DNA of 64,000 nt from assembly GCA_965207695.1 (NCBI GenBank), contig CBDBNA010000012.1, forward strand, positions 20,191 to 84,190, in the 5' to 3' direction. How positions within the stretch are numbered: the stretch's first letter is position 1; every line of letters starts with the position of its first letter. The position numbers were made by a program, and so were the translations under genes. The stretch is from Dehalococcoidia bacterium. GTDB lineage: Bacteria; Chloroflexota; Dehalococcoidia; Bin125. The notes beneath the pieces were generated by a model. It did no database searches. It saw only the letters and a list, made by a program, of their open reading frames with translations, and was not told the origin of the DNA. This document shows, piece after piece, positions 23,069-53,131 of this stretch.

Positions 23069-23779
23069 TCAGACGAAGCGGGTGGGCAGTCCCTGGCTGA
23101 CGCGCAGTTCGAAGGTGTGTGCGGTGGCGGGCTGGGTCGCCAGGAACACCGCGGCGTCGGCGATGTCCTCGGCCTGGATGAGGGACTCGGGGTCCTCGTC
23201 GGGGAAGTCCTCGTGGCGCATGCGGGAGACGGTGGCATCGGGCAGGATGACGTGCGTGCGGATGCCGCGGTGCAGGTACTCCTGGATGCAGACCTTCGTC
23301 AGGCCCATCACGCCGTGCTTCGAGGCGGTGTAGGCGGAGCGGTTGACTCCCCCTCCCACCACGCCGGCGCCGGAGCTGATGTTGATGATGCAGCCGCCGC
23401 CCTGCTCGAGCATCGGCGGGACCGCGTACTTGGTGCAGAGGAACACGCCGCGCAGGTTGACGTTGATCACGTGGTCCCAGTCCTCGGTGGGCAGCTCGTG
23501 CAGGGGCAGGCGGGTGACCGCGCCGGCGTTGTTGATCAGGATGTCGATGCGGCCGTAGGCGGCCAGCGCGCCGTCGATGAGGGCGCGGATGTCGGCCTCG
23601 TCGCTCACGTCGCAGCGGATGGCCGTGCCGCCGACCTCGGCGGCCACCGCCTCGATCTCATCGACCGAGCGGGCCGAGCAGACGACCTTGGCGCCCTCCT
23701 TCGCGTAGGCGATGGCGATCGCCCGGCCGATGCCGCGTCCGGCGCCGGTGACGACCGCGACTTTGCCGTCGAGTTGCAT
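23069..23779 (-). CDS. SDR-family oxidoreductase
   Basis: 237 aa with TGAGRGIGRA (NAD(P) binding), NNAG, and a Y-x-x-x-K catalytic region (YTASKHG). Confidence 0.85.
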   Translation of the reverse strand: MQLDGKVAVVTGAGRGIGRAIAIAYAKEGAKVVCSARSVDEIEAVAAEVGGTAIRCDVSDEADIRALIDGALAAYGRIDILINNAGAVTRLPLHELPTEDWDHVINVNLRGVFLCTKYAVPPMLEQGGGCIINISSGAGVVGGGVNRSAYTASKHGVMGLTKVCIQEYLHRGIRTHVILPDATVSRMRHEDFPDEDPESLIQAEDIADAAVFLATQPATAHTFELRVSQGLPTRFV

Positions 23780-23926
23780 GGGGGGTCTCCTATTCGTTCG
23801 GCTGAGGCCGGGTGGGTCCGGCGCCGCCCCAACGGTAGCCACGAACCGGGCCGGCGTCAGCCCGACGGCGGCCGGGCTGGGATGGGCGGGGGATCGATCG
23901 GTACCCTGCCGGGACGGAGCCGCGCC

Positions 23927-25168
23927 ATGACGACACTCGACACACACGCCGACACGATCATCCCGTCCCCGGACGACGCCCCGGCGTCGGCGCTGACGGG
24001 GGTGCGGGTGCTCGACTTCACGCGCGCCCAGCAGGGCCCGTTCGCGACGCTGCTGCTGGCCGACATGGGGGCGGAGGTGATCAAGGTCGAGCCGCCCGGC
24101 GGCGAGATGGGCCGCGCCAGCGGACTCAATCCCGAGGGCTTCTCCTCGTATTTCGAGGGGCACAACCGGGGCAAGCGCAGCATCACGCTCGACCTCAAGC
24201 GGCCGGGGGCGGTCGACGTCGTGCGCCGGCTGGTCCCGACCTGCGACGTGGTCGTGGAGAACTTCCGGCCGGGCGTGATGGAGCGGCTGGGCATCGGCTA
24301 CGAGGACTGCCGGCGGCTGCGGGCCGACATCATCTTCGCCTCGGCGTCGGCCTGGGGGCGGGACGGCCCCTGGGCGGCGCGCGGGGGCTACGACCACGTC
24401 GCGCAGGCGCTGAGCGGCGTGATGTACGAGCAGGGCGAGGGCCCCGGCGGCGAACCGCAGGCGCTGATCGGCGGCTTCGCCGACCAGGTCGGGGCGATGC
24501 TGCTGGCCTTCGGCATCGCGTCGGCGCTGTACGTGCGCCAGCGCGACGGGGTCGGCCAGCACATCGACGGTTCGCTGATCGGCGGCATGGTGGCGATGCA
24601 GTCGAAGCAGATCATGGAGTTCCTGCGCAGCGGCGTGCAGCGCGGCTTCCAGCGGCGCCGGGCGGCGACGTACACCAACTACGCCTGCGCCGACGGCCGC
24701 CACGTGGCCATCGCCGCGAACGCGCAGGACATGTGGGAGCGCCTCTGCGACGCCCTCGACGCGCCGCAGCTCAAGAGCGACGCGCGCTTCGCCGACCCCT
24801 TCGGGCGGGATCGCAACAAGGACGCGCTGGTCGAGGCGCTCGACGCGATCTTCCGCACGCGGCCGCTGGCCGACTGGCTGGAGCCCCTGGAGCGGCACGA
24901 CGTGCCGCACGCGCCGGTCCTCGACTACGCCGGCATGAGCGCCCACCCGCAGTACTGGGCGAACGGGTACCTGCAGGAGATCGAGACGCCGCACCTGGGG
25001 CCGATGCGGGTGCCCGGGCCGCCCATCCGCATGAGCGCGACGCCGCCGCGCGTGCAGGGCAGCGGCCCCATCCTGGGCTTCCACACCGAGGAGATCCTGC
25101 AGTCCGTCGGGTACGGCTGGGACGAGATCGAGGCGCTGAAGGACAGCGGCGCGATCCGCACGGCATGA
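23927..25168 (+). CDS. CoA-transferase family III (CaiB/BaiF/Frc-like) protein
   Basis: 413 aa. The N-terminal GVRVLDFTRAQQGPFATLLLADMGAEVIKVEPPGG and the active-site Asp region GGYDHVAQALSG are present. Confidence 0.85.
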   Translation: MTTLDTHADTIIPSPDDAPASALTGVRVLDFTRAQQGPFATLLLADMGAEVIKVEPPGGEMGRASGLNPEGFSSYFEGHNRGKRSITLDLKRPGAVDVVRRLVPTCDVVVENFRPGVMERLGIGYEDCRRLRADIIFASASAWGRDGPWAARGGYDHVAQALSGVMYEQGEGPGGEPQALIGGFADQVGAMLLAFGIASALYVRQRDGVGQHIDGSLIGGMVAMQSKQIMEFLRSGVQRGFQRRRAATYTNYACADGRHVAIAANAQDMWERLCDALDAPQLKSDARFADPFGRDRNKDALVEALDAIFRTRPLADWLEPLERHDVPHAPVLDYAGMSAHPQYWANGYLQEIETPHLGPMRVPGPPIRMSATPPRVQGSGPILGFHTEEILQSVGYGWDEIEALKDSGAIRTA

Positions 25169-26317: not shown

Positions 26318-26671
26318 TCAGCTCGCGCGCGCCGCCTGCGGCGCCGGGACCTTCACCTCCACCTCCACCCACTCGAACCGGGTCGAGAGCGTGGGGATGT
26401 CGTCGCCATACTCAACCATGTCCTGCTCGTCGTACTCGGCAAGGGCTTCGCTGTGATAGGCGATGGCCTCTTCGATGGACATCTTCGGTTCGGGGAGCGG
26501 TTCGCCCTGCTCCAGCAGGTCCTCGATGTGGAAGGTGAGCGCCTCCCGGATCATCGCCTGCATCTCGTCCCAGGTCTTGCCGGTGCTGACGCAGCCCGGC
26601 ACGTCGGGGGCGTAGGCCCCGTAGTTGTTGGGGGTCTGCTCGATGACGACGGCGTAGGTCAGCTTCATCAT
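26318..26671 (-). CDS. hicB: HicB-family antitoxin (UPF0150/HicB-like fold)
   Basis: 117 aa. The N-terminal YAVVIEQTPNNYGAYAPDVPGCVSTGKTWDEMQAMIREAL is typical of HicB_lk_antitox. It overlaps upstream hicA by 4 nt. Confidence 0.75.
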   Translation of the reverse strand: MMKLTYAVVIEQTPNNYGAYAPDVPGCVSTGKTWDEMQAMIREALTFHIEDLLEQGEPLPEPKMSIEEAIAYHSEALAEYDEQDMVEYGDDIPTLSTRFEWVEVEVKVPAPQAARAS

Positions 26672-39387: not shown

Positions 39388-39577
39388 ATTCCACCTCCCC
39401 GGTCCCGTGCAGAGGCCCCGTGCAGAGGCCCCGTGCAGAGGCCGCATGCAGAGGCAGAGCGTAGCGCCCCGCGCCGCCGGGGGGTGAGACTGACGTCGCG
39501 CCGCAGGCCGTAGACACCCGCCGCGGTCGGTGGGAGCCTGCACCGGGACAGGGCTGATGGCGAACGGAGAGCGAGCG

Positions 39578-40849
39578 ATGACCGACCCGACCGGCGGCGC
39601 GCTGGACGGCATTCGCCTCCTCGACCTGAGCACGCAGCCGGGGCAGTATGCGGGGCGGCTGCTCGCCGACCTGGGGGCCGACACGATCAAGGTCGAGCCG
39701 CCCGGCGGCGACGCGATGCGCCTCGTGGGTCCCTTCGAGGGCGACGCCGTCGGCCCCGAGTCGAGCCTGACCTGGCGCTACTTCAACGCCAACAAGCGCT
39801 CGGTAACCTGCAACCTCGACCTGCCCGGCGGCCGGCGCCTGCTGCGGGAACTCGCGCGCGACGCCGACGTGGTGCTCGAGTCGTACGGGCCGGGCTACAT
39901 GGAGTCGCGCGGCGTGGGCTTCGATGCCCTGCGCGCGGTGCGGCCCGGCCTCGTCTACGTCTCGATCAGCGGCTTCGGGCGGGAGGGGCCGCACGCCGGC
40001 TGGCAGGCGACGGAACTCATCGCGCAGGCGGCCTCGGGCGTGCTGACGCTGTCGGGCGACCCGGCGAGCGCGCCGCAGATGCTGGGCGCGAACCAGGCCT
40101 GCATCACGGCGTCGCTGTCGGCCGCGCAGGGCGCGCTGCTCGCCGTCTTCCACAAGGAGCGGACGGGCGAGGGCCAGCTCGTCGAGGTCTCGATGCAGGA
40201 GGCGCTGTCGATCGCACAGGAGACCGCGATGCAGCAGTGGGACTTCCAGCGCACGTCGCGGGAGCGCCAGGGCGAGATCCCCACGCTGCCCGGCCTGGGC
40301 ACCTACGCGACGCGCGACGGCTACGTCTTCTCGATGGTGGGCGGGCCGGCGGGGGCGTCGTGGTCGGAACTGGTCGATTGGCTGATCGAGGAGGGCGCGG
40401 GGGGAGAGCTGGTCGCCGGGCACGAGGCGGCGTTCCGCGCCTTGAACATGGAGACGGCCGTCCAGGCCCTGCGCAACCCCGCCAAGGCGGCGGAGTTCGG
40501 CGCGCTGATGCCGATCGCGCGGGAGACGCTGGCGGCGTTCTTCGCGACGCGGACCAGCCGCGAGATCTATGAGGAGGGCCAGCGGCGGCGCCTGCTGATC
40601 GGGATGGTTTCGACGCCGAAGGAGCTGATGGAGAGCCCGCAGCTCCGCGCCCGCGATTGGCGGCTGCCCGTCGGGGAGGACGGCGCGGCGGCCGACTTGC
40701 CCGGCCCGCCCTACCGGCTGAGCGCCACCCCGGCGACGGTGCGCCGCGCCGCCCCGGCGATCGGCGAGCACAACCGCGAGGTGTGGCTGGAGGAAGTGGG
40801 CATCGCGCCCGAAGAATTCGAGGCGCTGATGGCGGAGGGGGCGATATGA
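39578..40849 (+). CDS. CoA-transferase family III protein
   Basis: The track ORF starts at 39530; 39557 and 39578 are alternative starts. Contains GIRLLDLSTQPGQYAGRLLADLGADTIKVEPPGG and an active-site region with Glu in place of Asp (ATELIAQAASG). Confidence 0.8.
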   Translation: MTDPTGGALDGIRLLDLSTQPGQYAGRLLADLGADTIKVEPPGGDAMRLVGPFEGDAVGPESSLTWRYFNANKRSVTCNLDLPGGRRLLRELARDADVVLESYGPGYMESRGVGFDALRAVRPGLVYVSISGFGREGPHAGWQATELIAQAASGVLTLSGDPASAPQMLGANQACITASLSAAQGALLAVFHKERTGEGQLVEVSMQEALSIAQETAMQQWDFQRTSRERQGEIPTLPGLGTYATRDGYVFSMVGGPAGASWSELVDWLIEEGAGGELVAGHEAAFRALNMETAVQALRNPAKAAEFGALMPIARETLAAFFATRTSREIYEEGQRRRLLIGMVSTPKELMESPQLRARDWRLPVGEDGAAADLPGPPYRLSATPATVRRAAPAIGEHNREVWLEEVGIAPEEFEALMAEGAI

Positions 40850-42129
40850 CGTCGCAGGGGGGCGGCAAGCGGCCGCTCGACGGCATCCGCGTGGCCGACT
40901 TCTCCTGGTTCGGCGCGGGCCCGATCGTGGGCCGCACGCTGGCCGACTTCGGGGCCGAGGTGGTGCGCATCGAGAGCGAGTACAAGATCGACGCGCTGCG
41001 GCTGACGCAGCCCGTCCCGCCCGACCGGCCCGCGACCTACAACACGGGCGGCTTCTTCAACAACTTCAACGCGGGCAAGCACTCGTTCCTGCTCAACATG
41101 AACGCCGAGGGAGCACGGGCCGTCGCCTACCGCCTGGTGGAGCGCTCCGACGTGTTCCTGACCAACCACACGCCACGGGTCGTCGCGAAGTGGGGGGTGG
41201 ATTACGAGTCGCTGCGGGCGGTCAACCCGCGCATCATCGCCGCCTACCAGCCGATGCAGGGCTCGACGGGGCCGCACAAGGACTTCATCGGCTTCGGGGC
41301 GGTGCTGACGCCGGTCAGCGGGCTCAGCCATCTGAGCGGCGACCCGGCCCGGCCGCCGATCGGCGTGGGCACGAACTACCCCGACTTCACGCTGAACCCG
41401 GGCCACACGATGACGGCGATCCTGGCCGCGCTGCGCCACCGTGAGCGGACCGGCGCCGGCCAGATGGTGGAGCTGGCGCAGATCGAGTCGGTGGCGGCGA
41501 CGCTGGGGCCGGCGCTGCTCGACTACACGGTGAACGGCCGCGTGGCGGCGCGCACCGGCAATCGCTCGCGGGGGATGGCGCCGCACGGCGTGTTCCGCTG
41601 CCGCGACCAGGCGCGGTCGCACCCGGCGGCGGTGGGGCAGGATCCGGACGTGCGCGAGCGCTGGATCGCGATCGCGGTGCGGGACGACGACGAGTGGGCG
41701 GCGCTCTGCGCGGCGGCTCCGGGGTCGGCCTTCGCCGGCGACGCGCGCTTCGCGACCTTCGCCGGGCGCAAGCGACACGAGGACGCGCTGGAGTCGGCGA
41801 TCGCGGGCTGGACGGCGGGGGAGGAGGCGGCGTCGCTGCAGGAGCGGCTGCAAGGCGCCGGCGTGCCGGCGCACCTCGTGCAGGACGCCGAGGACATGCT
41901 GGACCACGACGCGCACCTGCGCGCGCGGGGCTACTACCGGCGCCTGGAGCATCCCGAGACGGGGCTCTCGGCCTACGACGGCCCGGTCGTCGGGCTGGGC
42001 GAGACGCCGGGCGACCTGCGCTGGGCCGCGCCCCTCTTCGGCGAGCACACCTACGAGGTCGCCACGCGCATCCTCGGCTACTCCGACGACGAGGTCTCGG
42101 AGTTGGTCGCGGCGGGCGTCCTGGCGTAG
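40846..42129 (+). CDS. CoA-transferase family III protein
   Basis: 427 aa, with an ATGA overlap with the upstream CoA-transferase. Contains GIRVADFSWFGAGPIVGRTLADFGAEVVRIES and a KDFIGFGAV active-site region. Confidence 0.8.
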   Translation: MTSQGGGKRPLDGIRVADFSWFGAGPIVGRTLADFGAEVVRIESEYKIDALRLTQPVPPDRPATYNTGGFFNNFNAGKHSFLLNMNAEGARAVAYRLVERSDVFLTNHTPRVVAKWGVDYESLRAVNPRIIAAYQPMQGSTGPHKDFIGFGAVLTPVSGLSHLSGDPARPPIGVGTNYPDFTLNPGHTMTAILAALRHRERTGAGQMVELAQIESVAATLGPALLDYTVNGRVAARTGNRSRGMAPHGVFRCRDQARSHPAAVGQDPDVRERWIAIAVRDDDEWAALCAAAPGSAFAGDARFATFAGRKRHEDALESAIAGWTAGEEAASLQERLQGAGVPAHLVQDAEDMLDHDAHLRARGYYRRLEHPETGLSAYDGPVVGLGETPGDLRWAAPLFGEHTYEVATRILGYSDDEVSELVAAGVLA

Positions 42130-43589: not shown

Positions 43590-43800
43590 TTCGCGGGCAG
43601 CGTAGCCGCTGCCCCCCTCTGCGTCCCGAACCTCACCCCCTAACCCCCTCTCCATTGCCGAGCAATGGAGAGGGGGGACTCCGATCCCCTCTCCCTGGGG
43701 AGAGGGTTAGGGTGAGGGGGAACCAGCGCCCGCGCCCACGTTCCCCCTCTCCATCGTTCAGATGGAGAGGGGGACAGGGGGTGAGGTCCCGGCGACCGTC
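43590..43800. repeat. cluster of palindromic hairpin elements (REP-like family, locus D)
   Basis: Contains ccctctccattg-ccgag-caatggagagggg; cccctctccc-tgg-ggagaggg; ccctctccatc-gttcag-atggagaggg, plus ggtgagggg / cctcacccc flanks. Confidence 0.8.
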
Positions 43801-45517
43801 ACGCCGTGGGCAGGGCGTCGTACATATCGTGCACGTCGGCGCCGTGGAAGCGGGCGCGCCGGTTGGTGGGCGGCACGGCCTCCTCGTAGAAGAAGGCGGG
43901 CAGTTCGTCGTCGCCGGCCGCGAAGCCGGCCCGACGGTTGAAGTCGCGCTCCTGCCGCAGCGCGCGCTGGCCCAGGCGCTCGAAGAAGCCGGTGTCGAGA
44001 GTGGTGCCGTGCGCGGCGTTGATCGCGTCGGTCAGAAACTCGATGTTGGCGTAGGTGACGCTGCCGCCGAAGACGCACAGCCCCAGCGAATCGACGGCCG
44101 CCACGCGCGTCTGGTGGGCGAGGCTCTGCTCGAGGATCTCGTCGAGCGACATCTCCGTGGTCACGAGGCGGGGCAGGTTGCCGGTCGTGTGGTCGGCGCC
44201 CTGGGCGGTCGCCATCATGGCGACGCCCGTCGCCTCGACGACGCGCGGGTCGTAGGCGCTGATCGCCTGGCGCTTGATCACGGGCACGCGGTGCACGCCC
44301 AGCTGCTCGCCGACGCGGGCCGTGCCCTGCGCCAGGAAGCGGCCCCGCTCGCTGCCCCGCTCGATCTCGTCCATGCAGGCGGTCATGAAGGCCTTGTCGC
44401 CGAACTCCGCCTCGCCGGCCTCCATGAGCACGGCGAGCGTCGCGCCGGTCTCGATCGTGTCGACGCCGAGCTCGTTGGCCAGGGCGTTCATGTCGGCCAG
44501 GTCGTCGGGGTTGCTGAGCCCGCAGTTCGAGCCCAGCAGCGCGAGGGTCTCGTACTCCACGGGCGAGACGACCTCGTTGCCGTCGGCGTCGTTGTAGACG
44601 TTGCTGCACTGGATGAGGCAGCCGGGCATGCAGGCGTGCGACTGGTCGCCGCCGCGCTCGGCGATGAGCGGCGCGATGAACTCGGCGCCCATGCGGAAGG
44701 TCTCGCCGGCCTCGGTGTCGGACAGGCGGCCGGCGCTGAAGTTGTGCACCGGCAGGCCGCCCAGGTAGTTCTGCACGTCGGCCATCGCCATCGTGCCCAG
44801 CGGCTTGTAGGTCGTCTGGATCACCTCGTCGTTCTGCACCTTCTGGGCGTAGCCGCGCACCGACTGGCGCACCTTGGGCGCGTCGCTGAACGGCGGCATG
44901 CGGTCGAGGTCGACGACGACCGCCTTGACGCGCTTCGACCCCATCACGGCGCCGACGCCGCCGCGGGCGGCGAGGCGCGAGGGGCGGCCGTCCTTGTCGC
45001 TGATGGCGATCCCGGCGATCAGCCCCTGGTACTCGCCGACGGGCCCGCAGAGCGCGAAGGCGACCTTCTTGCCGTAGTGCGCGAAGAGCCGTGCCGCGGC
45101 CTCGGAGTTGCGCAGGCCGAGGTAGGGGGAGGCGTCGTCGAACTCGATGCCGCCGTCGCGGGTGAGGTGGACGACGGTCCAGTCGTCGGACGCGCCCAGC
45201 AGCGTGAAGCCCGCGATCTTGAGCTGGCCCATTCCGTATCCCAGCGTGCCGCCGCCGTTGGCTTCCTTGACGCCGCCGGTGAGCGGGCTCTTGCAGCCCA
45301 CGCTCGTGCGGTTGGCGTTCGAGAAGCTCGTGCCGGCGAAGGGGCCGGCGGAGAAGATCAGCGGGTTGCCGGGGCCCAGCGGGTCGACGCGGGCGGCGTC
45401 GCGCTCCAGCAGCGTCTTCGCGATCAGGTAGCGCCCGCAGTAGACGATGTCCTCGCCGTGCAGTTCGCGCGTCGCGACCGTCCGGTCGCCGAGGTCGATG
45501 TCGTGGAATAGCCGCAC
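43799..45517 (-). CDS. aldehyde:ferredoxin oxidoreductase (AOR) family, tungsten/molybdopterin enzyme
   Basis: The track ORF extends to 45748, but the plausible start is the GTG at about 45517 (VRLFHDIDLGDRTVATRELHGE..). AOR N-terminal domain and cofactor-binding regions are present (..CMPGCLIQCS.. Fe-S Cys cluster; ..GLCVFG..), giving a ~572-aa protein. Confidence 0.75.
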   Translation of the reverse strand: MRLFHDIDLGDRTVATRELHGEDIVYCGRYLIAKTLLERDAARVDPLGPGNPLIFSAGPFAGTSFSNANRTSVGCKSPLTGGVKEANGGGTLGYGMGQLKIAGFTLLGASDDWTVVHLTRDGGIEFDDASPYLGLRNSEAAARLFAHYGKKVAFALCGPVGEYQGLIAGIAISDKDGRPSRLAARGGVGAVMGSKRVKAVVVDLDRMPPFSDAPKVRQSVRGYAQKVQNDEVIQTTYKPLGTMAMADVQNYLGGLPVHNFSAGRLSDTEAGETFRMGAEFIAPLIAERGGDQSHACMPGCLIQCSNVYNDADGNEVVSPVEYETLALLGSNCGLSNPDDLADMNALANELGVDTIETGATLAVLMEAGEAEFGDKAFMTACMDEIERGSERGRFLAQGTARVGEQLGVHRVPVIKRQAISAYDPRVVEATGVAMMATAQGADHTTGNLPRLVTTEMSLDEILEQSLAHQTRVAAVDSLGLCVFGGSVTYANIEFLTDAINAAHGTTLDTGFFERLGQRALRQERDFNRRAGFAAGDDELPAFFYEEAVPPTNRRARFHGADVHDMYDALPTA

Positions 45518-45628
45518 CGTGCGCCCCCGTTCCGGCGGCCCGGCGCCCGTCCGGCGGGCGGATCGCGCCGCGCCGCCCAGTCTAGCGAGCGGGCGGCAGC
45601 CGCGGCGCGGCTGGGCTACCGTGGCGTC

Positions 45629-45916
45629 GTGGCGGCCGACGCGATCAACGTGCGAGTGACGCTCTTCGGGACGCTGCGCGGCTTCGCCCCCGAGGGGGCC
45701 GGCGGCGCGATGGACCTGCGCCTGCCCCCGGGCGCGACGATCGCGCAACTGCGCGAGGCCATCGGACTGCCGGCGACGACGGAGATCACGGTCGGCGTGA
45801 ACGGCGCGCAGACCGACGAGACGGCGTCGCTGCGGGACGGCGACCAGGTGATGCTGTTCAACGCGTTGTCCGGAGGGGCTGTCGGTCGGGGCAAATCCCG
45901 CAGCCGCGTGCGATGA
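45629..45916 (+). CDS. MoaD/ThiS-like ubiquitin-fold sulfur-carrier protein with 12-aa extension after the Gly-Gly
   Basis: 95 aa, reading ..VRVTLFGTLRGFAPEG..IAQLREAIGLPA..EITVGVNGAQTDETASLRDGDQVMLFNALSGG followed by AVGRGKSRSRVR. It is divergent from the AOR gene across a ~110-bp intergenic region. Confidence 0.5.
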   Translation: MAADAINVRVTLFGTLRGFAPEGAGGAMDLRLPPGATIAQLREAIGLPATTEITVGVNGAQTDETASLRDGDQVMLFNALSGGAVGRGKSRSRVR

Positions 45917-45990
45917 TTGGGGCCGGCCTGTGTGGCCGTCCGATCGGCAGCAAAAAAAAAATTCTTCGCGAAGGGGGCGGTGGCACAGCC

Positions 45991-46959
45991 ATGATCGATG
46001 AGCAGACGGCGACGACGGTCGCGGGGCTGACGGTGCGGGCGCTGCCCGGCGCGCGCTTCGGGGCGGAGATCACGGGGCTCGACCCCCTGCGGATCGGTGA
46101 GGAGCAGCGGGCCGTCATCTGGGACGCCTACGCCCGGCGGCACGGGCTGCTCTGCTTCTCCTTCGACCGGCTGCTGGAGGCGGACGAGTTGCACGCCCTG
46201 ACGGCCGTGTTCGGAACAAATGAGTTCGCGCCGGGGATGATCAACGGGATCGGCAAGGGCACGCCGAAGGGCGAGGAGCATCTGACCGTCGAGGAGCAGG
46301 TCGCGGCGCTGCGGGCGCGCGGCGAGGATCCCTACCTGGCGTTCATCGGCAACCTGACGCCGGGGACGCTGGAGGCGAAGCCGGTCGACGGCCGCTTCTA
46401 CGGGGAGTGGGAGTGGCACTCGGACATGTCGTACATCGCGGTGCCGCCGACGTTCAGCCTGCTCCACGGCCGCGTCATCCCCGACGAGGGCGGCGACACG
46501 GGCTTCTGCAGCCAGGTGATGGCGGCGCGGGAACTGCCGGACGAGCTGCGCCGGCGGGCCGGGGCGTTGTGGGCGAAGCACGACTCGACCTACGGCAGCA
46601 GCGGCGTGATGCGGGAGGGCATGGACGCCCCGGCGTCGCCGGTGGAGGCGCTGGGCCACGCGCACCCCATCCTGCGCCGCGTGCCCAGCACAGGCGAGGA
46701 GGCGCTGTTCCTCGGCCGGCGCACGAACGGCTACATCGTCGGCCTGCCGCTGGAGGAGAGCGAGCGGCTGCTCGACGAGCTGTGGGCGCACGCGACGCAG
46801 GAGCGCTTCTGCTACCGCCACCGCTGGCGCGCCGGGCAGGTGGTCGTGTGGGACAACCGGATGCTGATGCACATGCGCCACCCGCTCGCGAACGATGACG
46901 TCCGCTTTATGTGGCGGACGCAGACCAAGGGCGAGCCCGTGGTCCCGGCCGGCGGATGA
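45991..46959 (+). CDS. TauD/TfdA-family Fe(II)/2-oxoglutarate dioxygenase
   Basis: 322 aa; ATG at 45991 follows a gaaggggg RBS. Contains WHSDMSY (HxD), a distal His (HMRHP) and a C-terminal R for 2OG binding. Confidence 0.8.
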   Translation: MIDEQTATTVAGLTVRALPGARFGAEITGLDPLRIGEEQRAVIWDAYARRHGLLCFSFDRLLEADELHALTAVFGTNEFAPGMINGIGKGTPKGEEHLTVEEQVAALRARGEDPYLAFIGNLTPGTLEAKPVDGRFYGEWEWHSDMSYIAVPPTFSLLHGRVIPDEGGDTGFCSQVMAARELPDELRRRAGALWAKHDSTYGSSGVMREGMDAPASPVEALGHAHPILRRVPSTGEEALFLGRRTNGYIVGLPLEESERLLDELWAHATQERFCYRHRWRAGQVVVWDNRMLMHMRHPLANDDVRFMWRTQTKGEPVVPAGG

Positions 46960-49400
46960 CGTCCGCGGGCATGCTCGCCGCGTACCGCGTGCTGGACCTT
47001 TCGGACGAGACGGGGCAGTCCTGCGGGAAGATCCTGGCCGACCTGGGCGCGGACGTGATCAAGGTCGAGCCGCCCGGCGGCGACCCGGCGCGGCGCCGGC
47101 CGCCCTTCGTGGGCGACGAGCCGGGGCCCGATCGCGGGCTGTACTGGCTGGCCTGCAACGCGAACAAGCGCAGCGTCGCGGCCGACCTGGAGACGGAGGC
47201 GGGCCGGGCCCGGTTCCGCCGGCTCGTCGCGACGGCGGACGTGGTCGTCGAGTCGTTCGCGCCGGGGCGGATGGCGGGTTGGGGGCTCGATTTCCCGAGT
47301 CTGGCGGCGATCAACTCCCGACTGGTGCTGGTCTCGATCAGCCCGTTCGGGCAGCGGGGGCCGCATCGCGACTACCGGGGGCCGGACATCGTGACCTGGG
47401 CGATGAGCGGCCTCATGTCGATCTGCGGCGAGCCGTCCGGTCCGCCCGCGCAGATCAGCGACAACGCCCAGTCCTCCTTCGCGGCCGGGGGCGACGCGGC
47501 CGTGGGGGCGCTGCTGGCGCTGCTGCAACGGCGGCGCCGCAGCGGCCGCGGTCAGCACGTCGACGTGTCGACCCAGGAGTCGGTGATCCGCAGCAGCTTC
47601 CAGGTGGCGGCCAGTTGGGACATGGAGAGGCGCAACCTGCCCCGGGCGTATCGGCCGTCGCAGACGCCGATGTCCTGGACCTGGCGCTGCCGCGACGGCT
47701 ACGTGGTCTGGCTGCAGGCCGTCGGCCCGTACTCCACCACGCGGGCGGCGGGCTTCTTCGCCTGGCTGCGCGACGAAGGGGAGGGGGCCGACCTCCTCGC
47801 CCTCGACTGGGAGGCGATGGTCCCGTGGCAGGAGCCGCCGGCGGACTGGTCGGCGGTGGTCGCCGCGACGGCGGCCGTCTTCGCCAAGTACACCAAGGCC
47901 GAGTTGTACGCAGCCGCGATGACGTACGGGTTCTCGCTGTTCCCCGTGGACACCGCGGCCGACACGATGGCCAACGCGCAGTTGGAAGCGCGCGACTTCT
48001 GGCGCGACGTGGCGCATCCGGCGCTGGACCGCGCGATCCGGCTGCCGGGCCCCTTCGCCCGCGCGACGCGCACGCCGCCGCGGGCGCCCCGTCCGGCGCC
48101 GCGGCTGGGCGAGCACACGGCGGAGATCCTGGCCGAACTGCCGCCGGAGCCGGAGCGCGCGCCGGACGCCCCGGTCGGCGTAGCGACGTCCCGCGTCCCG
48201 ATGCCGCTGGCTGGGGTCAAGGTGCTCGACCTGAGTTGGTTCATGGTGGGCCCGATGACGACCAAGGTGCTGGCCGACTACGGGGCCGACGTCGTGCACG
48301 TCGAGAGCAGCGTGCGCATCGACGGGCAGCGCACGTCGGGGCCGTTCCGCGACGGCGTGCGGGACCCGGAGCTCTGCGCCGACTACGCGCAGGTGCGCAC
48401 CAACCAGCGCTCGATCGCGCTCGACATCGCCCAGCCCGGGGGGCGCGACGTCGCGCTGCGGATGGCGGATTGGGCGGACGTGGTCGTGAACAACTTCTCG
48501 GGCGGCGCGATGGATCGGATGGGGCTGGGCTACGAAGCGCTCCGCGCGCGCAACCCGTCGATCATCTACCTCGGTTGCAGCGGCCAGGGGGCGACGGGGC
48601 CGCAGCGCCACAGCAAGGGCGGCGGCGGCCACTACGCGGCGCTGGCCGGCTTCAACCACCTGACCGGCCGTCCCGGCGACCCGCCCGGCTACCTGAGCGC
48701 GTACACCGACTTCATCGCGCCGCGCTTCAACGTGGCGCTGCTCCTGGCGGCGCTCGACCACCGCGACCGCACCGGGCTGGGACAGAGCTTCGACGTGTCC
48801 CAGTACGAGGCCTCGATGCACTGGCTCGGGCCGTCGTTGCTCGACTACAGCGTCAACGGGCGCGTCGCGGGGCGGCAGGGCAACCGGCAGCCCGGCGCCG
48901 CGCCGCACGGGGCCTATCGCAGCCGCGACGACCGCTGGTGCGTCATCGCGGTGCGGGACGAGGCGGAGTGGCGGGCGTTCCGCGCGGCGATCGGCGATCC
49001 GGCCTGGGCGCGGGAGGAGCGCTTCGCCACGCACGCGGGCCGGAAGTCGCAGGAGGACGCGCTGGACGTACTGGTGGAGGCATGGACGCGCGAGCGCACG
49101 CCGGAGGCGGTGATGACGACGCTGCAAGGCGCCGGCGTGGCGGCGGGCGTCGTGCAGCGGGGCGAGGATCTGCTGGAGCACGACCCGCAACTGCGGCATC
49201 GCGGCTTCTGGCAGCCCCTCGATCACCCGACGATCGGGAGGTACCACGCGCCGCGGCACGCCTTCCGGCTGCCCGACGCCCCCTGCGCGCTGCGCCGCAG
49301 CCGGCTGATCGGCGAGGACACGGCGGAGGTCCTGCGCGACGTGCTGGGGCTGTCGGAGGCGGAGATCGCCGATCTGGCGGCCGACGGCCTCCTGCAGTGA
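46956..49400 (+). CDS. fused tandem CoA-transferase family III protein (two complete CaiB-like domains in one 814-aa polypeptide)
   Basis: The ATG overlaps the TauD stop (ATGA). Domain 1 reads YRVLDLSDETGQSCGKILADLGADVIKVEPPGG..GPDIVTWAMSGL (Asp present). Domain 2 reads GVKVLDLSWFMVGPMTTKVLADYGADVVHVES..GGGGHYAALAGF, with His where the catalytic Asp is expected. Confidence 0.8.
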   Translation: MTSAGMLAAYRVLDLSDETGQSCGKILADLGADVIKVEPPGGDPARRRPPFVGDEPGPDRGLYWLACNANKRSVAADLETEAGRARFRRLVATADVVVESFAPGRMAGWGLDFPSLAAINSRLVLVSISPFGQRGPHRDYRGPDIVTWAMSGLMSICGEPSGPPAQISDNAQSSFAAGGDAAVGALLALLQRRRRSGRGQHVDVSTQESVIRSSFQVAASWDMERRNLPRAYRPSQTPMSWTWRCRDGYVVWLQAVGPYSTTRAAGFFAWLRDEGEGADLLALDWEAMVPWQEPPADWSAVVAATAAVFAKYTKAELYAAAMTYGFSLFPVDTAADTMANAQLEARDFWRDVAHPALDRAIRLPGPFARATRTPPRAPRPAPRLGEHTAEILAELPPEPERAPDAPVGVATSRVPMPLAGVKVLDLSWFMVGPMTTKVLADYGADVVHVESSVRIDGQRTSGPFRDGVRDPELCADYAQVRTNQRSIALDIAQPGGRDVALRMADWADVVVNNFSGGAMDRMGLGYEALRARNPSIIYLGCSGQGATGPQRHSKGGGGHYAALAGFNHLTGRPGDPPGYLSAYTDFIAPRFNVALLLAALDHRDRTGLGQSFDVSQYEASMHWLGPSLLDYSVNGRVAGRQGNRQPGAAPHGAYRSRDDRWCVIAVRDEAEWRAFRAAIGDPAWAREERFATHAGRKSQEDALDVLVEAWTRERTPEAVMTTLQGAGVAAGVVQRGEDLLEHDPQLRHRGFWQPLDHPTIGRYHAPRHAFRLPDAPCALRRSRLIGEDTAEVLRDVLGLSEAEIADLAADGLLQ

Positions 49401-50791
49401 CACCGGCGCGGTGGGCGCGGGCGCTGCCCGTCCTGCTGGGCGTCGTCCTGGCCGCTTGCGCGAGCGGCAACACACCCCTGGACCCCGACGCCGCCGATCT
49501 TCGCAACCTGATCTTCTGGGACTCGCTGAGCGGCGAAGGCTTCCTGACCGCCCCTGAGCCCCTACTGCGCAGCCTCGACGAACTCGCCGTGTCCGCGCAT
49601 CCGGGGGCAGACAAGTACCTCGTCGACCTGGCGAATGTGCCGACGCCCTACGCCACCCGCATCGTCGACCACCTGCGGACGCGCTTCGGGCGGCCCGGCG
49701 CCGACCGGCTGTCGCAGTTCCCGGAACTCGCGCTGCCGCCCCCCGACGACCGGGAAACCGCGGCCTACCTGGAGTTCAAGCGGCAGCTCTTCGGCTCGAT
49801 CGACCCCGCGTTCGCGCTCTTCCTCAGCGAGCGCTGGCCGCGCACGATCGACGCGCGGGAGGTGCGCTACGGCGGCGTCGGCGTCGACGTCATCCCGCCG
49901 CTGGAGTTCCCCGCCTACGTGACGGCGCACGAGGCCGCGGCCTGGCTGCGGGCCGACGACGAGGTCGTCGGCGTCTCGATCAACGGCGACGCGCGGGCCT
50001 TCCCGGTGCGGATCATCGCCTGGCACGAGATGGTCAACGACACCATCGGCGGCGTGCCGGTGTCGCTGGCCTACTGCACGCTGTGCGGCAGCGCCATCGC
50101 CTACGACGGCCGCCTGCGCGGGGAGGTCTACCGCTTCGGGACGAGCGGGCTGCTTTATCGGTCGAACAAGCTGATGTACGACCGCACCACGCGGACGCTG
50201 TGGAATCAGTTCACCGGCGAGCCGGCCTGGGGCGAACTGGCCGGGCAGGGGCTGCGCCTGCGGCCGATCGCCTCGACGTACACGACCTGGGCCGCCTGGC
50301 TGGCCGCGAACCCGGCGACCTCGGTGCTCGACATCGAGACGGGCTACCCGTACGGCTACGCGCCCGGCGCGGCCTACGCGGAGTACAACGCCAGCGACGA
50401 GTTGATCTTCGCCGTGCCGATGGACGACGGGCGCTTGGCCCCGCGCGACGAGGTGTTCGTCGTGCGGACGGCAGACGGGGTGAGCGCGTACGCCATCGCC
50501 GACCTGGGCTCGTCGGCGGTGGTGAACGACCGCGTCGGCGACCTGCCGATCGTCGTGGTGGCCACGGCCGACGGCATGGGCGCGCGCGCCTTCGAGCGGG
50601 GCGGGCGGTCGTTCAGCGCGGCGGGCCAGGTCGGGGCGCTGGTGGATGAGTCGGGCGGGCGCTGGACGGTCGCGGAGGACGCGCTGACGGGGCCCGCTGG
50701 GGAAACGCTGCCGCGGGTCAACGGCAGCAACGCCTTCTGGTTCGCGGTCGCGAACTTCGTGGGCGAGAGCCGCCTGTACGGCCCGGACTAG
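49397..50791 (+). CDS. DUF3179-domain lipoprotein (paralog 2)
   Basis: GTG start overlaps the upstream stop (GTGA). A signal peptide plus lipobox (LLGVVLAACASG) precedes the DUF3179 core ARAFP..MVNDTIGGVP..AYCTLCGSA..LLYRSNKLMYD, which aligns with the gene at 19975..21756. Confidence 0.75.
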   Translation: MTPARWARALPVLLGVVLAACASGNTPLDPDAADLRNLIFWDSLSGEGFLTAPEPLLRSLDELAVSAHPGADKYLVDLANVPTPYATRIVDHLRTRFGRPGADRLSQFPELALPPPDDRETAAYLEFKRQLFGSIDPAFALFLSERWPRTIDAREVRYGGVGVDVIPPLEFPAYVTAHEAAAWLRADDEVVGVSINGDARAFPVRIIAWHEMVNDTIGGVPVSLAYCTLCGSAIAYDGRLRGEVYRFGTSGLLYRSNKLMYDRTTRTLWNQFTGEPAWGELAGQGLRLRPIASTYTTWAAWLAANPATSVLDIETGYPYGYAPGAAYAEYNASDELIFAVPMDDGRLAPRDEVFVVRTADGVSAYAIADLGSSAVVNDRVGDLPIVVVATADGMGARAFERGGRSFSAAGQVGALVDESGGRWTVAEDALTGPAGETLPRVNGSNAFWFAVANFVGESRLYGPD

Positions 50792-51036
50792 GGCTTGCCG
50801 GCATTCACGTCGTTCTCCTGCAGCTGCTCCAGGAGGGTTTCTGCTGCTTCACGAGACATTCCCATGCTGCGCAGCACCGCCACCGCGACCGAATGCTCTA
50901 GCGTCTTCCGGCGGGGCATCCGCACCCGCTCCGTACCCCCGACACGCCGGTAGAACTCACTGTGTCTGGTTTGCCCCTTGAACGAATACCCGGCTTCTCG
51001 CAGGTAGCCCACCAAGAGGCGCCGCGGGACCTTCAC
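50788..51036 (-). CDS. HicA/YcfA-like toxin (second copy)
   Basis: The track ORF extends to 51123, but the likely start is a GTG (VKVPRRLLVGYLREAGYSFKGQTRHSEFYRRVGGTERVRMPRRKTLEHSVAVAVLRSMGMSREAAE), which parallels the YcfA consensus L.k.Gf...r.kGSH..y.hp.g...tvP.H.gkel..g.l..ilk..Gl. Confidence 0.55.
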   Translation of the reverse strand: MKVPRRLLVGYLREAGYSFKGQTRHSEFYRRVGGTERVRMPRRKTLEHSVAVAVLRSMGMSREAAETLLEQLQENDVNAGKP

Positions 51037-51341
51037 GCCGGGATCGGCTCCATCTTCACCGGGAAGTCGAACGTCAGCTTCTCGTTCTCCGCGAACGCCA
51101 GGTCTTCCTCCTCGATCTTCCAACCGCGAGCAGCGAGGAACGCCTCCAGATCCCCCTCAGCGCAGAGGTCACTGAACAGAAAATCTGTGGCTTCATCGGC
51201 ACAGCGCTGGAAGGCACGGAACGTCTTGCCGTCGGCGTTGAGTCCCAGGTCGCGGCAGACACCGACCCAGAGCCCAGCCTCCTTGTCTTCCACGACCTCC
51301 CAAACCACTTCCGCCTGAATGCGAACAACGCGGTCAGGCAT
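51033..51341 (-). CDS. HicB-like antitoxin (UPF0150 N-terminal domain), second copy
   Basis: 102 aa. The region ..EVVEDKEAGLWVGVCRDLGLNADGKTFRAFQRCADEATDFLFSDL matches the HicB_lk_antitox pattern (edGgw.a.c.el.g....G.T.eEa......a.....e). It lies upstream of and overlaps the hicA-like gene. Confidence 0.55.
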   Translation of the reverse strand: MPDRVVRIQAEVVWEVVEDKEAGLWVGVCRDLGLNADGKTFRAFQRCADEATDFLFSDLCAEGDLEAFLAARGWKIEEEDLAFAENEKLTFDFPVKMEPIPA

Positions 51342-51940: not shown

Positions 51941-53131
51941 ATGCCGGCCCTCGATGGAATGCGGATCCTCGACATGACGCAGTACGAGGCGGGCACCTCG
52001 TGCACGCAGGCGCTGGCCTGGATGGGGGCCGACGTCGTCAAGGTCGAACCGCCCGGCGGCGGCGACCCGGGACGGGGCGCGATGCGCGGCGCGCGCAACT
52101 CGCCCTACTTCCTGAACTGGAACAGCAACAAGCGCAGCATCGTGATCGACCTGCGCCAGCCCAGCGGCCGGCAGTTGCTGCTCGACATGGCGCCGCACTA
52201 CGACGTCTTCGTCGAGAACTACGGCCCGGGCGTCGTGGAGAAGCTGGGCATCGGCTACGACGCGATGCAGGCCGCGCACCCGGGCATCATCTACGCACGC
52301 GTCAAGGGATTCGGGGTGAGCGGCCCCTACGCCGGCTACAAGTGCTACGACATGGTGGCGCAGGCGGCGGCGGGCGCGTTCTCCGTCACCGGCGAGCCCG
52401 AGGGCCCGCCCACCATGCCCGGCCCCACCATCGGCGACTCCGGCACCGGCGTGCAGCTGGCGCTGGGCGTGCTGGGGGCGTACGTCCAGCAGCAGCGCAC
52501 CGGCGAGGGCCAACTGATCGAGATCTCCATGCAGGAGGCGGCGACCTACTACATGCGCTCTCGGATCGCGGGCGGCTCGCAGTGGGGGGAGGCGGTCGCG
52601 CCGCGCAACGGCAACGGGCACGGGCCGCTGGTGAACCTCTATGCCTGCCGACCCTTCGGGCCGAACGACTACGCCTACGTGATCGCCACGACGCCCCGCA
52701 TGTGGCGGACGCTGTGCGACGTTTTGGGCCGTCCGGAGCTGGCGGACGACCCCCGCTACGAGAACGCCGCCGGCCGCGAGGAGCACGGCGACGATCTGGC
52801 GGCGCTGATCGGGGAGTGGACGAAGCAGCGCACGAAGTGGGAGGTCATGCAGACCCTGGGGGAGGCCGGGATCCCCTGCAGCGCGGTCTTCGACACGGTC
52901 GACCTCTTCCACGACGAGCATCTCTTGAGCCGGGGCTTCGTGCACGAGATGGAGCACCCCGACCACGGCCGCGTGCGGCTGTTAGGCTGGGCGCCGCGGC
53001 TGTCCAAGAGCGACGTCCCGCTGCGTCGCGCGCCGCTGCTGGGCGAACATTCCGACGAAGTCCTGGCGGCGGACTTGGCGCTGAGCGCCGCGGAGATCGC
53101 GGAGTTGCGCGCGGCCGGCGCCCTCGGCTGA
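51941..53131 (+). CDS. CoA-transferase family III protein (formyl-CoA transferase/CaiB-like)
   Basis: 396 aa with GMRILDMTQYEAGTSCTQALAWMGADVVKVEPPGGGD and an active-site region YKCYDMVAQAAAGA. Confidence 0.85.
   Translation: MPALDGMRILDMTQYEAGTSCTQALAWMGADVVKVEPPGGGDPGRGAMRGARNSPYFLNWNSNKRSIVIDLRQPSGRQLLLDMAPHYDVFVENYGPGVVEKLGIGYDAMQAAHPGIIYARVKGFGVSGPYAGYKCYDMVAQAAAGAFSVTGEPEGPPTMPGPTIGDSGTGVQLALGVLGAYVQQQRTGEGQLIEISMQEAATYYMRSRIAGGSQWGEAVAPRNGNGHGPLVNLYACRPFGPNDYAYVIATTPRMWRTLCDVLGRPELADDPRYENAAGREEHGDDLAALIGEWTKQRTKWEVMQTLGEAGIPCSAVFDTVDLFHDEHLLSRGFVHEMEHPDHGRVRLLGWAPRLSKSDVPLRRAPLLGEHSDEVLAADLALSAAEIAELRAAGALG

Follow-up and report, generated by a model that had tools for sequence, protein, structure and literature searches.

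A two-domain family III CoA-transferase gene in a Dehalococcoidia bacterium, resembling fused BbsEF-type subunits with a predicted single active site in the C-terminal half

The 64-kb stretch of Dehalococcoidia DNA analyzed here (64,000 nucleotides, hereafter the window) contains a complete gene for a two-domain family III (Frc/CaiB/BaiF) CoA-transferase at positions 46956..49400 of the + strand, encoding 814 amino acids followed by a TGA stop. The open reading frame is unbroken from either a GTG at 46911 or an ATG at 46956 to position 49400, with the 814 residues counted from the ATG, and the closest homologues (814 and 818 aa, with 94% and 88% identity) align from residue 1. Together with the other full-length homologues of 800-850 aa, this bears out the original prediction of a single continuous ORF with no internal stop. 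An exact-sequence look-up with the 814-aa protein returned no matching record. Pfam CoA_transf_3 (PF02515) gave two matches that sum to 602.6 bits (cut-off 23.3), which places the protein in the PF02515 superfamily and supports the proposed tandem of two family III domains in one polypeptide. The AlphaFold2 model reached a pLDDT of 94 and a pTM of 0.95. Domain 1 (residues 1-396, 46956..48143, + strand) is similar to chain A of the heteromeric transferase BbsEF and is the predicted non-catalytic half, while domain 2 (residues 414-814, 48195..49397, + strand) is similar to BbsEF chain B and is the predicted catalytic half; the two share 27% identity. They are joined by a Pro-rich and poorly conserved linker of about 25 residues, ELPPEPERAPDAPVGVATSRVPMPL (residues 394-418, 48135..48209, + strand), which is the sole part of the model with low confidence (block pLDDT 55) and which varies from 18 to 55 aa among fusions. 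Domains with these boundaries and a low-pLDDT linker between them give the protein the layout of the two-domain class of family III enzymes.

Upstream on the same strand lies a gene for a TauD/TfdA-family Fe(II)/2-oxoglutarate dioxygenase (45913..46959; Pfam TauD, 162 bits), whose stop overlaps the transferase start as ATGA (46956-46959). Its translation probably begins at the ATG at 45991, which has an A-rich stretch and the Shine-Dalgarno-like site GAAGGGGG on its 5' side. Two genes upstream of the transferase is a ThiS-family gene (45629-45916, + strand), whose product has GG at residues 82-83 and then a further 12 residues as a cap; the gene adjoins an AFOR gene, and this ThiS-AFOR pairing recurs elsewhere without the transferase. 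Downstream, the transferase stop overlaps the GTG start of a DUF3179 gene (49397..50791, + strand; Pfam DUF3179, 262 bits) as GTGA (49397-49400), and the product, a predicted lipoprotein, begins with a signal peptide and a LAAC lipobox. The overlap with a downstream DUF3179 lipoprotein gene was confirmed, and a DUF3179 gene is also found 3' of the 88%-identical orthologue. The proposed coupling to TauD is seen in the window but is not conserved, as the same orthologue has an enoyl-CoA hydratase gene upstream and no TauD. With an amidase and other CoA-transferases also among the neighbours, the surroundings indicate no more than acyl-CoA catabolism in general, in a Chloroflexota genome rich in paralogues; they vary among orthologues, and no conserved operon for substrate inference was found. 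NCBIfam equivalog scores were all far under their cut-offs (e.g. 368 vs 750), and hence no substrate can be assigned.

The best PDB sequence matches of both halves were chains of the same enzyme, the succinyl-CoA:(R)-benzylsuccinate CoA-transferase BbsEF (PDB: 9fn0, 9fol and 9fun, released December 2025). Domain 1 matched 9fn0_A (E=7.8e-62) and, in Foldseek, chains A/C with a TM of 0.88 and 35% identity, whereas domain 2 matched 9fn0_B (E=8.8e-74) and chains B/D with a TM of 0.95, an rmsd of 1.5 and 37% identity. As in BbsEF, two distinct subunit types are thus present, of which one carries the Asp of the nucleophile column. The description of family III enzymes as obligate homodimers is too strong in view of BbsEF, a solved heteromer.

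Active sites of family III enzymes are located at the subunit interface, with the catalytic Asp in the last Rossmann helix (PMC9813914). The nucleophile column comprises Frc Asp169, Mct Asp165, Rv3272 Asp175 and BbsEF Asp178, and PDB titles name Frc Asp169 mutants, CaiB D169A, Rv3272 D175A and a BbsEF 'D178-CoA adduct' (9fol), the last residue being placed in chain B by residue count and this entry title. In domain 2 the column is occupied by Asp585 (AYTD585FIAP; codon at 48708..48710, + strand), which aligns with the Asp of the MTD/FAD motifs in 10uh, 4ed9 and SUGCT and with YTD178 of 9fn0_B. The residue opens a long helix (583-606) in the AlphaFold2 model, just as Asp165 of Mct is described at the start of a helix; domain 2 therefore has an Asp starting the last Rossmann-fold helix and domain 1 does not. 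Asp585 was kept in 114 of 115 fusions, and all but one of the domain-2-type sequences, fused or split (80 loci), have Asp in this column. Its position in the C-terminal domain is also that of the catalytic Asp of the two-domain class (cf. D430 of PtmU4). By analogy with these enzymes, Asp585 is predicted to be the nucleophile, with acyl-aspartyl anhydride and aspartyl-CoA thioester intermediates. Domain 2, which had been described as lacking the catalytic Asp, retains it at a different register, an outcome named beforehand as grounds for refutation.

At the same column, domain 1 has Ser173-Ser174 (codons at 47472..47477, + strand). Using phmmer, the FAD Asp of 4ed9 paired with S173 and the MTD Asp of SUGCT and 10uh with S174, and hhalign paired D585 with S174. 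Position 173 is S/A and position 174 is Y/F/H among the fusions, and a D/E within residues 172-176 occurs in just 1 of 115, which suggests that domain 1 is inactive at the nucleophile column. Acidic and His residues are found nearby, namely D/H at 169, H/D/N at 170 and, in 100 of 115 fusions, D/E at 180; with these, domain 1 could conceivably have a catalytic residue at another position or serve a second function. Conservation of the domain is no lower than that of the catalytic half, with about 35 invariant positions against about 25 in domain 2.

The likely product of the gene is a two-domain family III CoA-transferase in which BbsEF-type subunits are fused and a single active site lies in the C-terminal half. 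A flexible linker of about 25 residues would connect two different subunits of this type, and the halves would pack as one rigid body, like the subunits of a family III dimer. The whole-chain pTM of 0.95 and the TM values of 0.88-0.95 of the halves to the BbsEF subunits are consistent with a ring-through-ring dimer; the interlocked packing and the geometry around D585 are inferred. One of the two interface cavities would be catalytic and the other not. On the model of Frc and Mct, attack of Asp585 on the donor acyl-CoA thioester would give an acyl-aspartyl anhydride, which would be converted to a beta-aspartyl-CoA thioester before CoA passes to the acceptor carboxylate. Domain 1 would most likely have a structural role, closing off the single active site and giving it its shape. 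The proposal of an intramolecular pseudo-heterodimer in which one site is catalytic stands in general terms, but its polarity is reversed, with D585 in domain 2 and Ser173/Ser174 in domain 1.

A bifunctional enzyme similar to DddD, in which CoA transfer is followed by a second step (lyase or elimination) on the bound acyl-CoA, is an unlikely but not negligible alternative. The extra chemistry would come from the N-terminal pocket, conserved though lacking a nucleophile, or from the cavity that both halves share. This reading would fit the high conservation of domain 1 with its Q172 motif and the H/D pair at 169-170, and the adjacent TauD-family dioxygenase would suit sulfonate or betaine-type substrates. 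Landry et al. reported SAR202 CaiB/BaiF paralogues with DddD as their best Swiss-Prot match and suggested new lyase functions for them. However, the Pfam-annotated neighbours include no BCCT transporter, LysR regulator or DddB/C-like gene, TauD is not conserved beside orthologues, BbsEF, a plain transferase, is the best match in both structure and sequence, and DddD is an outgroup to the other two-domain proteins (Dong et al., PMC6006322). The Q172 motif, the H/D pair at 169-170, the acidic residue at 180 and D144 may be features of domain 1 beyond a mere scaffold. That enzymes of this Chloroflexota clade couple CoA transfer to a second reaction (elimination, lyase or isomerase chemistry) in the manner of DddD seems only marginally less improbable than that reading as a whole; an unknown carboxylic acid from dissolved organic matter could be the substrate of such a reaction.

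Given the capped ThiS-family gene two genes upstream on the same strand, with its GG at 82-83, there is a small chance of PtmU4-like sulfur chemistry, in which an acyl-CoA and sulfur from a ThiS-type thiocarboxylate would yield a thiocarboxylic acid. More than 90% of thioacid cassettes carry an acyl-CoA synthetase (PMC6006322), but there is none within two genes and no AMP-binding enzyme among the annotated ORFs of the window, and we dropped the idea of a thioacid cassette for lack of the synthetase. Nor were ThiF/MoeZ and JAMM genes seen, the ThiS gene sits with AFOR in a pairing that recurs without the transferase, and the 88%-identical orthologue has no ThiS gene nearby. In PtmU4 itself the N-terminal domain is shorter, and the C-terminal one starts at about residue 290. 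Taken together, a thioacid-forming enzyme is very improbable here.

Equally improbable is the reading, proposed originally, that domain 1 is catalytic through Asp144 and domain 2 is dead through a His in its place. Both quoted motifs exist, RGPD144IVTWAMSGL in domain 1 (Asp144 codon at 47385..47387, + strand) and G555GGGH559YAALAGF in domain 2. The proposed Asp-to-His replacement is out of register by two, since the counterpart of Asp144 is Gly557 (48624..48626, + strand) and His559 lies two residues on. Asp144 is kept in 109 of 115 fusions, Gly557 is Gly in every one of the 115, and the asymmetry of D144 and Gly is found in all fused and split pairs, which speaks in favour of this reading. 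Yet Asp144 aligns with Frc Glu140 in KVY139E140NVAQ, beside the carboxylate-binding Tyr (Mct Tyr136 binds the substrate carboxylate; PMC9813914), within a G-Y-D/E motif. Frc Asp169, in GAALGD169S, lies 29 residues after Glu140 (counted in the alignment), and Asp144 is therefore not the nucleophile. The residue opposite Gly557 is the Asp of GYD in 10uh, 4ed9 and SUGCT, and in 9fn0_B it is the final Gly of GYG; G-[FYW]-G is common to all domain-2-type sequences. Against Asp144 there are further the Asp of domain 2 and the Ser-Ser of domain 1 at the nucleophile column, the CoA adduct on D178 in what is by count the domain-2-like chain, and the C-terminal position of the catalytic Asp in PtmU4.

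The survey of relatives covered over 115 independent clusters (90% identity) and the full set of the 150 best clusters (50% identity). The clusters were mostly about 800-850 aa long, aligned over nearly the whole query and came from many samples and phyla, so that fusions of similar length are numerous. Split adjacent pairs with the same gene order, often with overlapping stop and start codons, were frequent among relatives and occur elsewhere in the window as well. In a neighbour-joining tree of relatives from many phyla, fused and split forms were interleaved, and switching between the two has apparently taken place repeatedly. The pairing of E-type and F-type subunits seen in BbsEF was found in Chloroflexota, Binatia, Entotheonella, Actinomycetota and Proteobacteria. 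Among the matches listed in a tblastn search of plasmids, one from an Aromatoleum aromaticum EbN1 plasmid was a split pair, and all annotations were generic 'CoA transferase' with none labelled DddD. A literature search found nothing linking Rv1866 with CoA transferase. Although split pairs with this gene order are frequent, it is scarcely credible that an artefact of sequencing or assembly (a lost stop or frameshift) joined two genes, given the mostly fused length of the clusters at both identity levels, closest homologues of 814 and 818 aa and a GC by codon position that is uniform over the whole ORF.

The gene reveals no new kind of enzyme, and the value of the analysis is mainly corrective. 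The observation that led to it was partly confirmed and the interpretation partly supported. For family III CoA-transferases that are heteromeric or two-domain, an x-T/S-D motif where the last Rossmann helix begins identifies the catalytic half, and the earlier G-x-D motif marks the other half; choosing the wrong Asp inverts the annotation of active and pseudo domains. The survey may aid the annotation of the many CaiB/BaiF paralogues in SAR202-like bacteria.

Fusions of this design are known already and occur commonly, and the protein is an ordinary addition to a known class, contrary to the earlier statement that no such fusion had been characterized. Two members, DddD and PtmU4, have been characterized and have the catalytic Asp in the C-terminal domain (PMC6006322), and the class counted 2,401 homologues in 2017, with generic annotation (Dong et al. 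2018, PMC6006322). Compared by description only, DddD doubles as a DMSP lyase, and PtmU4, whose N-terminal domain is shortened, is a sulfur transferase; the gene context here gives no support for either activity. Both of these characterized enzymes go beyond plain CoA transfer, DddD by its lyase activity and PtmU4 by sulfur transfer.

The likeness to BbsEF is found in the details of both halves. In BbsEF the nucleophile is present in one subunit type only, where YTD178 of chain B corresponds to D585, while the other type has the G-x-D motif and lacks an Asp in the nucleophile column. The G-G-G557 of the 814-aa protein corresponds to G-Y-G in chain B, and the tetraglycine loop of the Frc type is absent from both. 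The two systems differ in that BbsEF consists of separate polypeptides from adjacent genes and the present protein is one chain from a single ORF, with an identity of just 35-37%. The hosts differ too, an anaerobic toluene degrader in one case and a high-GC Chloroflexota bacterium in the other, and no thiolase, BbsG-type dehydrogenase or glycyl-radical gene of a bbs/bss context was found among the neighbours. On account of the separate chains, the low identity, the lack of bbs/bss genes and the different host, the protein is not a functional orthologue of BbsEF. Frc, YfdW, CaiB, SUGCT and Mct have the same fold and Pfam family, and domain 2 shares their nucleophile position; unlike the 814-aa protein, they are homodimers with two equivalent active sites. 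In these canonical enzymes the Tyr-Asp/Glu pair (Y139-E140 in Frc) and the nucleophile are in the same subunit, whereas in the 814-aa protein the two features are split, with D144 in domain 1 and D585 in domain 2.

The fusion gene (46956-49400, +) lies in one uninterrupted ORF that could start with GTG at 46911 or ATG at 46956 and terminates with TGA at 49398-49400. Its nearest homologues, of 814 aa (94% identity) and 818 aa (88% identity), align from residue 1, and ATG 46956 was therefore taken as the start, giving a protein of 814 aa. Two separate stretches of this protein matched Pfam CoA_transf_3, with a summed score of 602.6 bits. Its start codon and the stop of the TauD-family gene upstream share an ATGA overlap, and its own stop shares GTGA with the GTG start codon of the DUF3179 gene downstream. 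The DUF3179 product carries a signal peptide and an LAAC lipobox at its N-terminus. As both motifs quoted by the original prediction were also found in the protein, its physical observation of a continuous two-domain ORF, coupled to a TauD gene and a DUF3179 lipoprotein gene, was correct.

The proposed active site had to be reversed. Asp144 of domain 1 had been regarded as catalytic and His559 as its counterpart in a domain 2 devoid of the catalytic Asp. In profile and pairwise alignments, D144 pairs with G557, which is invariant in 115 fusions, and H559 is located two residues downstream. The motif opposite in O. formigenes Frc is KVY139-E140-NVAQ, while Asp169, the catalytic residue according to PDB titles, follows 29 residues on in GAALGD169S (numbering obtained by aligning the window's own Frc-like protein with Frc and confirmed by counting). 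These alignments indicate that the D144/G557 column, that of Frc E140, is not the nucleophile column of family III enzymes. At the nucleophile column domain 2 reads AYTD585F. The residue paired with D585 in 10uh (a Frc-like enzyme from Brucella), 4ed9 and human SUGCT is the Asp of an MTD or FAD motif; D585 itself is kept in 114 of the 115 fusions and sits at the start of a long helix (583-606) in the AlphaFold2 model. Domain 1 has Ser173 or Ser174 there, as judged from three pairwise alignments and a profile-profile alignment; across the fusion family, position 173 is S or A and position 174 is Y, F or H, with D or E occurring within 172-176 in a single sequence out of 115. D585 in domain 2 and Ser173/Ser174 in domain 1 thus point to domain 2 as the catalytic half and to a domain 1 without nucleophile. 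The expectation of one active site stood, but on the C-terminal domain, which retains its Asp at a different register, an outcome that the original prediction had itself named as refuting it.

Among solved structures, both halves come closest to succinyl-CoA:(R)-benzylsuccinate CoA-transferase, BbsEF, each to a different one of its two chains. Domain 1 resembles chain A (E=7.8e-62, TM 0.88, 35% identity) and domain 2 resembles chains B/D (E=8.8e-74, TM 0.95, rmsd 1.5 Å, 37% identity). PDB entry 9fol is titled 'D178-CoA adduct'; based on residue count and this title, D178 was placed in YTD178 of chain B as the counterpart of D585, whereas chain A has Ala at 178 and no Asp in the aligned nucleophile column. 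At the G557 column, chain B has G-Y-G and domain 2 G-G-G, in contrast to G-Y-D in canonical enzymes. Since domain 1 matches chain A and domain 2 chain B, the fusion appears to be a single-chain version of the E-type/F-type heteromer. AlphaFold2 with an alignment of 98 sequences gave pLDDT 94 and pTM 0.95, with uncertainty only in the linker block near residues 400-410, which speaks for the two halves being packed in a fixed arrangement; by homology they would truly interlock.

The fused form is common. The database search for fusions of similar length returned more than 115 clusters at 90% identity (full-length, 790-860 aa), and the best 150 clusters at 50% identity were mostly of ~800-850 aa and aligned over nearly the whole query. 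At least 596 genomic stretches encode relatives (596 among the 600 matches listed), and hosts among the matches listed include Dehalococcoidia, SAR202 and Tepidiformaceae within Chloroflexota, as well as Binatia, Entotheonella, Acidimicrobiia, Mycolicibacterium, Bradyrhizobium, Desulfobacteraceae and others. In many of the 80 relatives' loci analysed, the two halves are split into adjacent genes, the domain-1 type coming immediately before the domain-2 type. Throughout these 80 loci, fused or split, the domain-1 type has S, T or P followed by D or E at the 144 column, and the domain-2 type has G-F/Y/W-G at that position and carries the nucleophile Asp in every sequence except that of locus L065 (7400-8632), where Gly replaces it (AYSGAV); this pair could be fully inactive, or the change a sequencing error. 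Fused and split forms interleave in a neighbour-joining tree of domain-2 sequences (without bootstrap support), also within the query's own clade, which suggests repeated fusion or fission. The window itself holds both versions, as a split pair at 39530-40849 and 40657-42129 (both +; true start of the second gene probably near 40870) accompanies the fusion. The first gene is of the domain-1 type, its 144 column occupied by Glu (WQATELIAQA); the second is of the domain-2 type and combines G-F-G with NYPDF as nucleophile motif.

Several loci depart from this pattern. The catalytic-type domain comes first in fusion L078 (5947-8658) and split pair L074 (5974-8479), so domain order is not fixed. 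In three fusions of 842-884 aa (L019, L023, L028), the split pair L022 (gene 981-2237) and the 858-aa fusion L039, the N-terminal type, too, has Asp or Glu at the nucleophile column (TFAD/TFAE/QAD), so that both halves are acidic there; these relatives may have two active sites and may reflect a less specialised state. Two paralogous two-domain transferase genes adjoin in L031 (5932-8373 and 8434-10842) and lie within 6 kb in L086 (1-1265 and 6001-8439), hence the fused gene has been duplicated locally. A split pair on the Aromatoleum aromaticum EbN1 plasmid (NC_006824.1, 66354-68761), annotated 'CoA transferase (x2)', shares 37% identity with the query over 93% of its length and possibly corresponds to the locus of succinyl-CoA:phthalate CoA-transferase.

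No NCBIfam equivalog model was reached by the fusion (best score 368 bits, cut-off 750). Its gene context is not conserved among orthologues: the locus of the 88%-identical orthologue (L081) keeps DUF3179 and the downstream genes, while upstream TauD is replaced by genes for enoyl-CoA hydratase and acyl-CoA dehydrogenase, and the neighbours of more distant orthologues are carboxyltransferases, enolase-superfamily genes, flavin monooxygenase, or aldehyde:ferredoxin oxidoreductase (AFOR) and ThiS. The window is a paralogue-rich catabolic region with five CoA_transf_3 genes and several luciferase-like monooxygenases, enolases and Zn-dependent dehydrogenases. The most likely role of the fusion is ATP-independent activation of some carboxylic acid through CoA transfer; additional DddD-like or PtmU4-like chemistry is conceivable, with no support from the gene context.

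Downstream, 51941-53131 (+) encodes a single-domain Frc-like CoA-transferase in which Y-D and a nucleophile motif, G-D-S, are both present. In the PDB it matched O. formigenes Frc best (246 bits), but it fell below the NCBIfam formyl-CoA transferase cut-offs (347 vs 504); the gene and those after it are syntenic with L081. Two DUF3179 genes were found in the window (19975-21756, -; 49397-50791, +), one directly 3' of a CoA_transf_3 gene and the other ~1.4 kb from one (23117-25168, +); a DUF3179 gene also comes after the fusion in L081, and the association may be recurrent. Upstream, a small ThiS-family protein (45629-45916, +) has a C-terminus capped by the 12 residues that come after its GG motif (residues 82-83). 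Its gene lies between TauD and a divergent AFOR gene (43799-45748, -), and AFOR-ThiS-MoaD adjacency was found again in L086. The TauD ORF, annotated from 45913, probably starts at the internal ATG 45991 (Met27), just 5' of which an A10 run and a Shine-Dalgarno-like GAAGGGGG suggest a promoter or ribosome-binding region rather than translational coupling at the ThiS-TauD junction. At 50788-51341 (-), where GC is lower (~68-70%), two short ORFs (111 and 102 aa) overlap each other and had no Pfam match; by sequence they resemble a toxin-antitoxin pair of the HicA/HicB type, and a HicB-like antitoxin that does match Pfam is encoded at 26318-26671 (-).

The two-domain fused architecture is already described in the literature, and the view that such fusions are uncharacterised does not hold. 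Dong et al. (PMC6006322) credit Todd et al. 2007 with the tandem domains and poorly conserved linker, name DddD as the sole two-domain member characterised before, count 2,401 two-domain homologues, and locate the conserved catalytic Asp of PtmU4, D430, in its C-terminal domain, mutants being 125-400-fold less active. In Endozoicomonas DddD, two CaiB domains span 1-416 and 439-821 (Tandon et al. 2020, PMC7174347), and CaiB/BaiF is greatly expanded in SAR202, some paralogues having DddD as best hit (Landry et al. 2017). Judged by sequence, the 814-aa protein is a new representative of these known two-domain (fused E/F-type) family III CoA-transferases, with a single predicted active site in its C-terminal domain.
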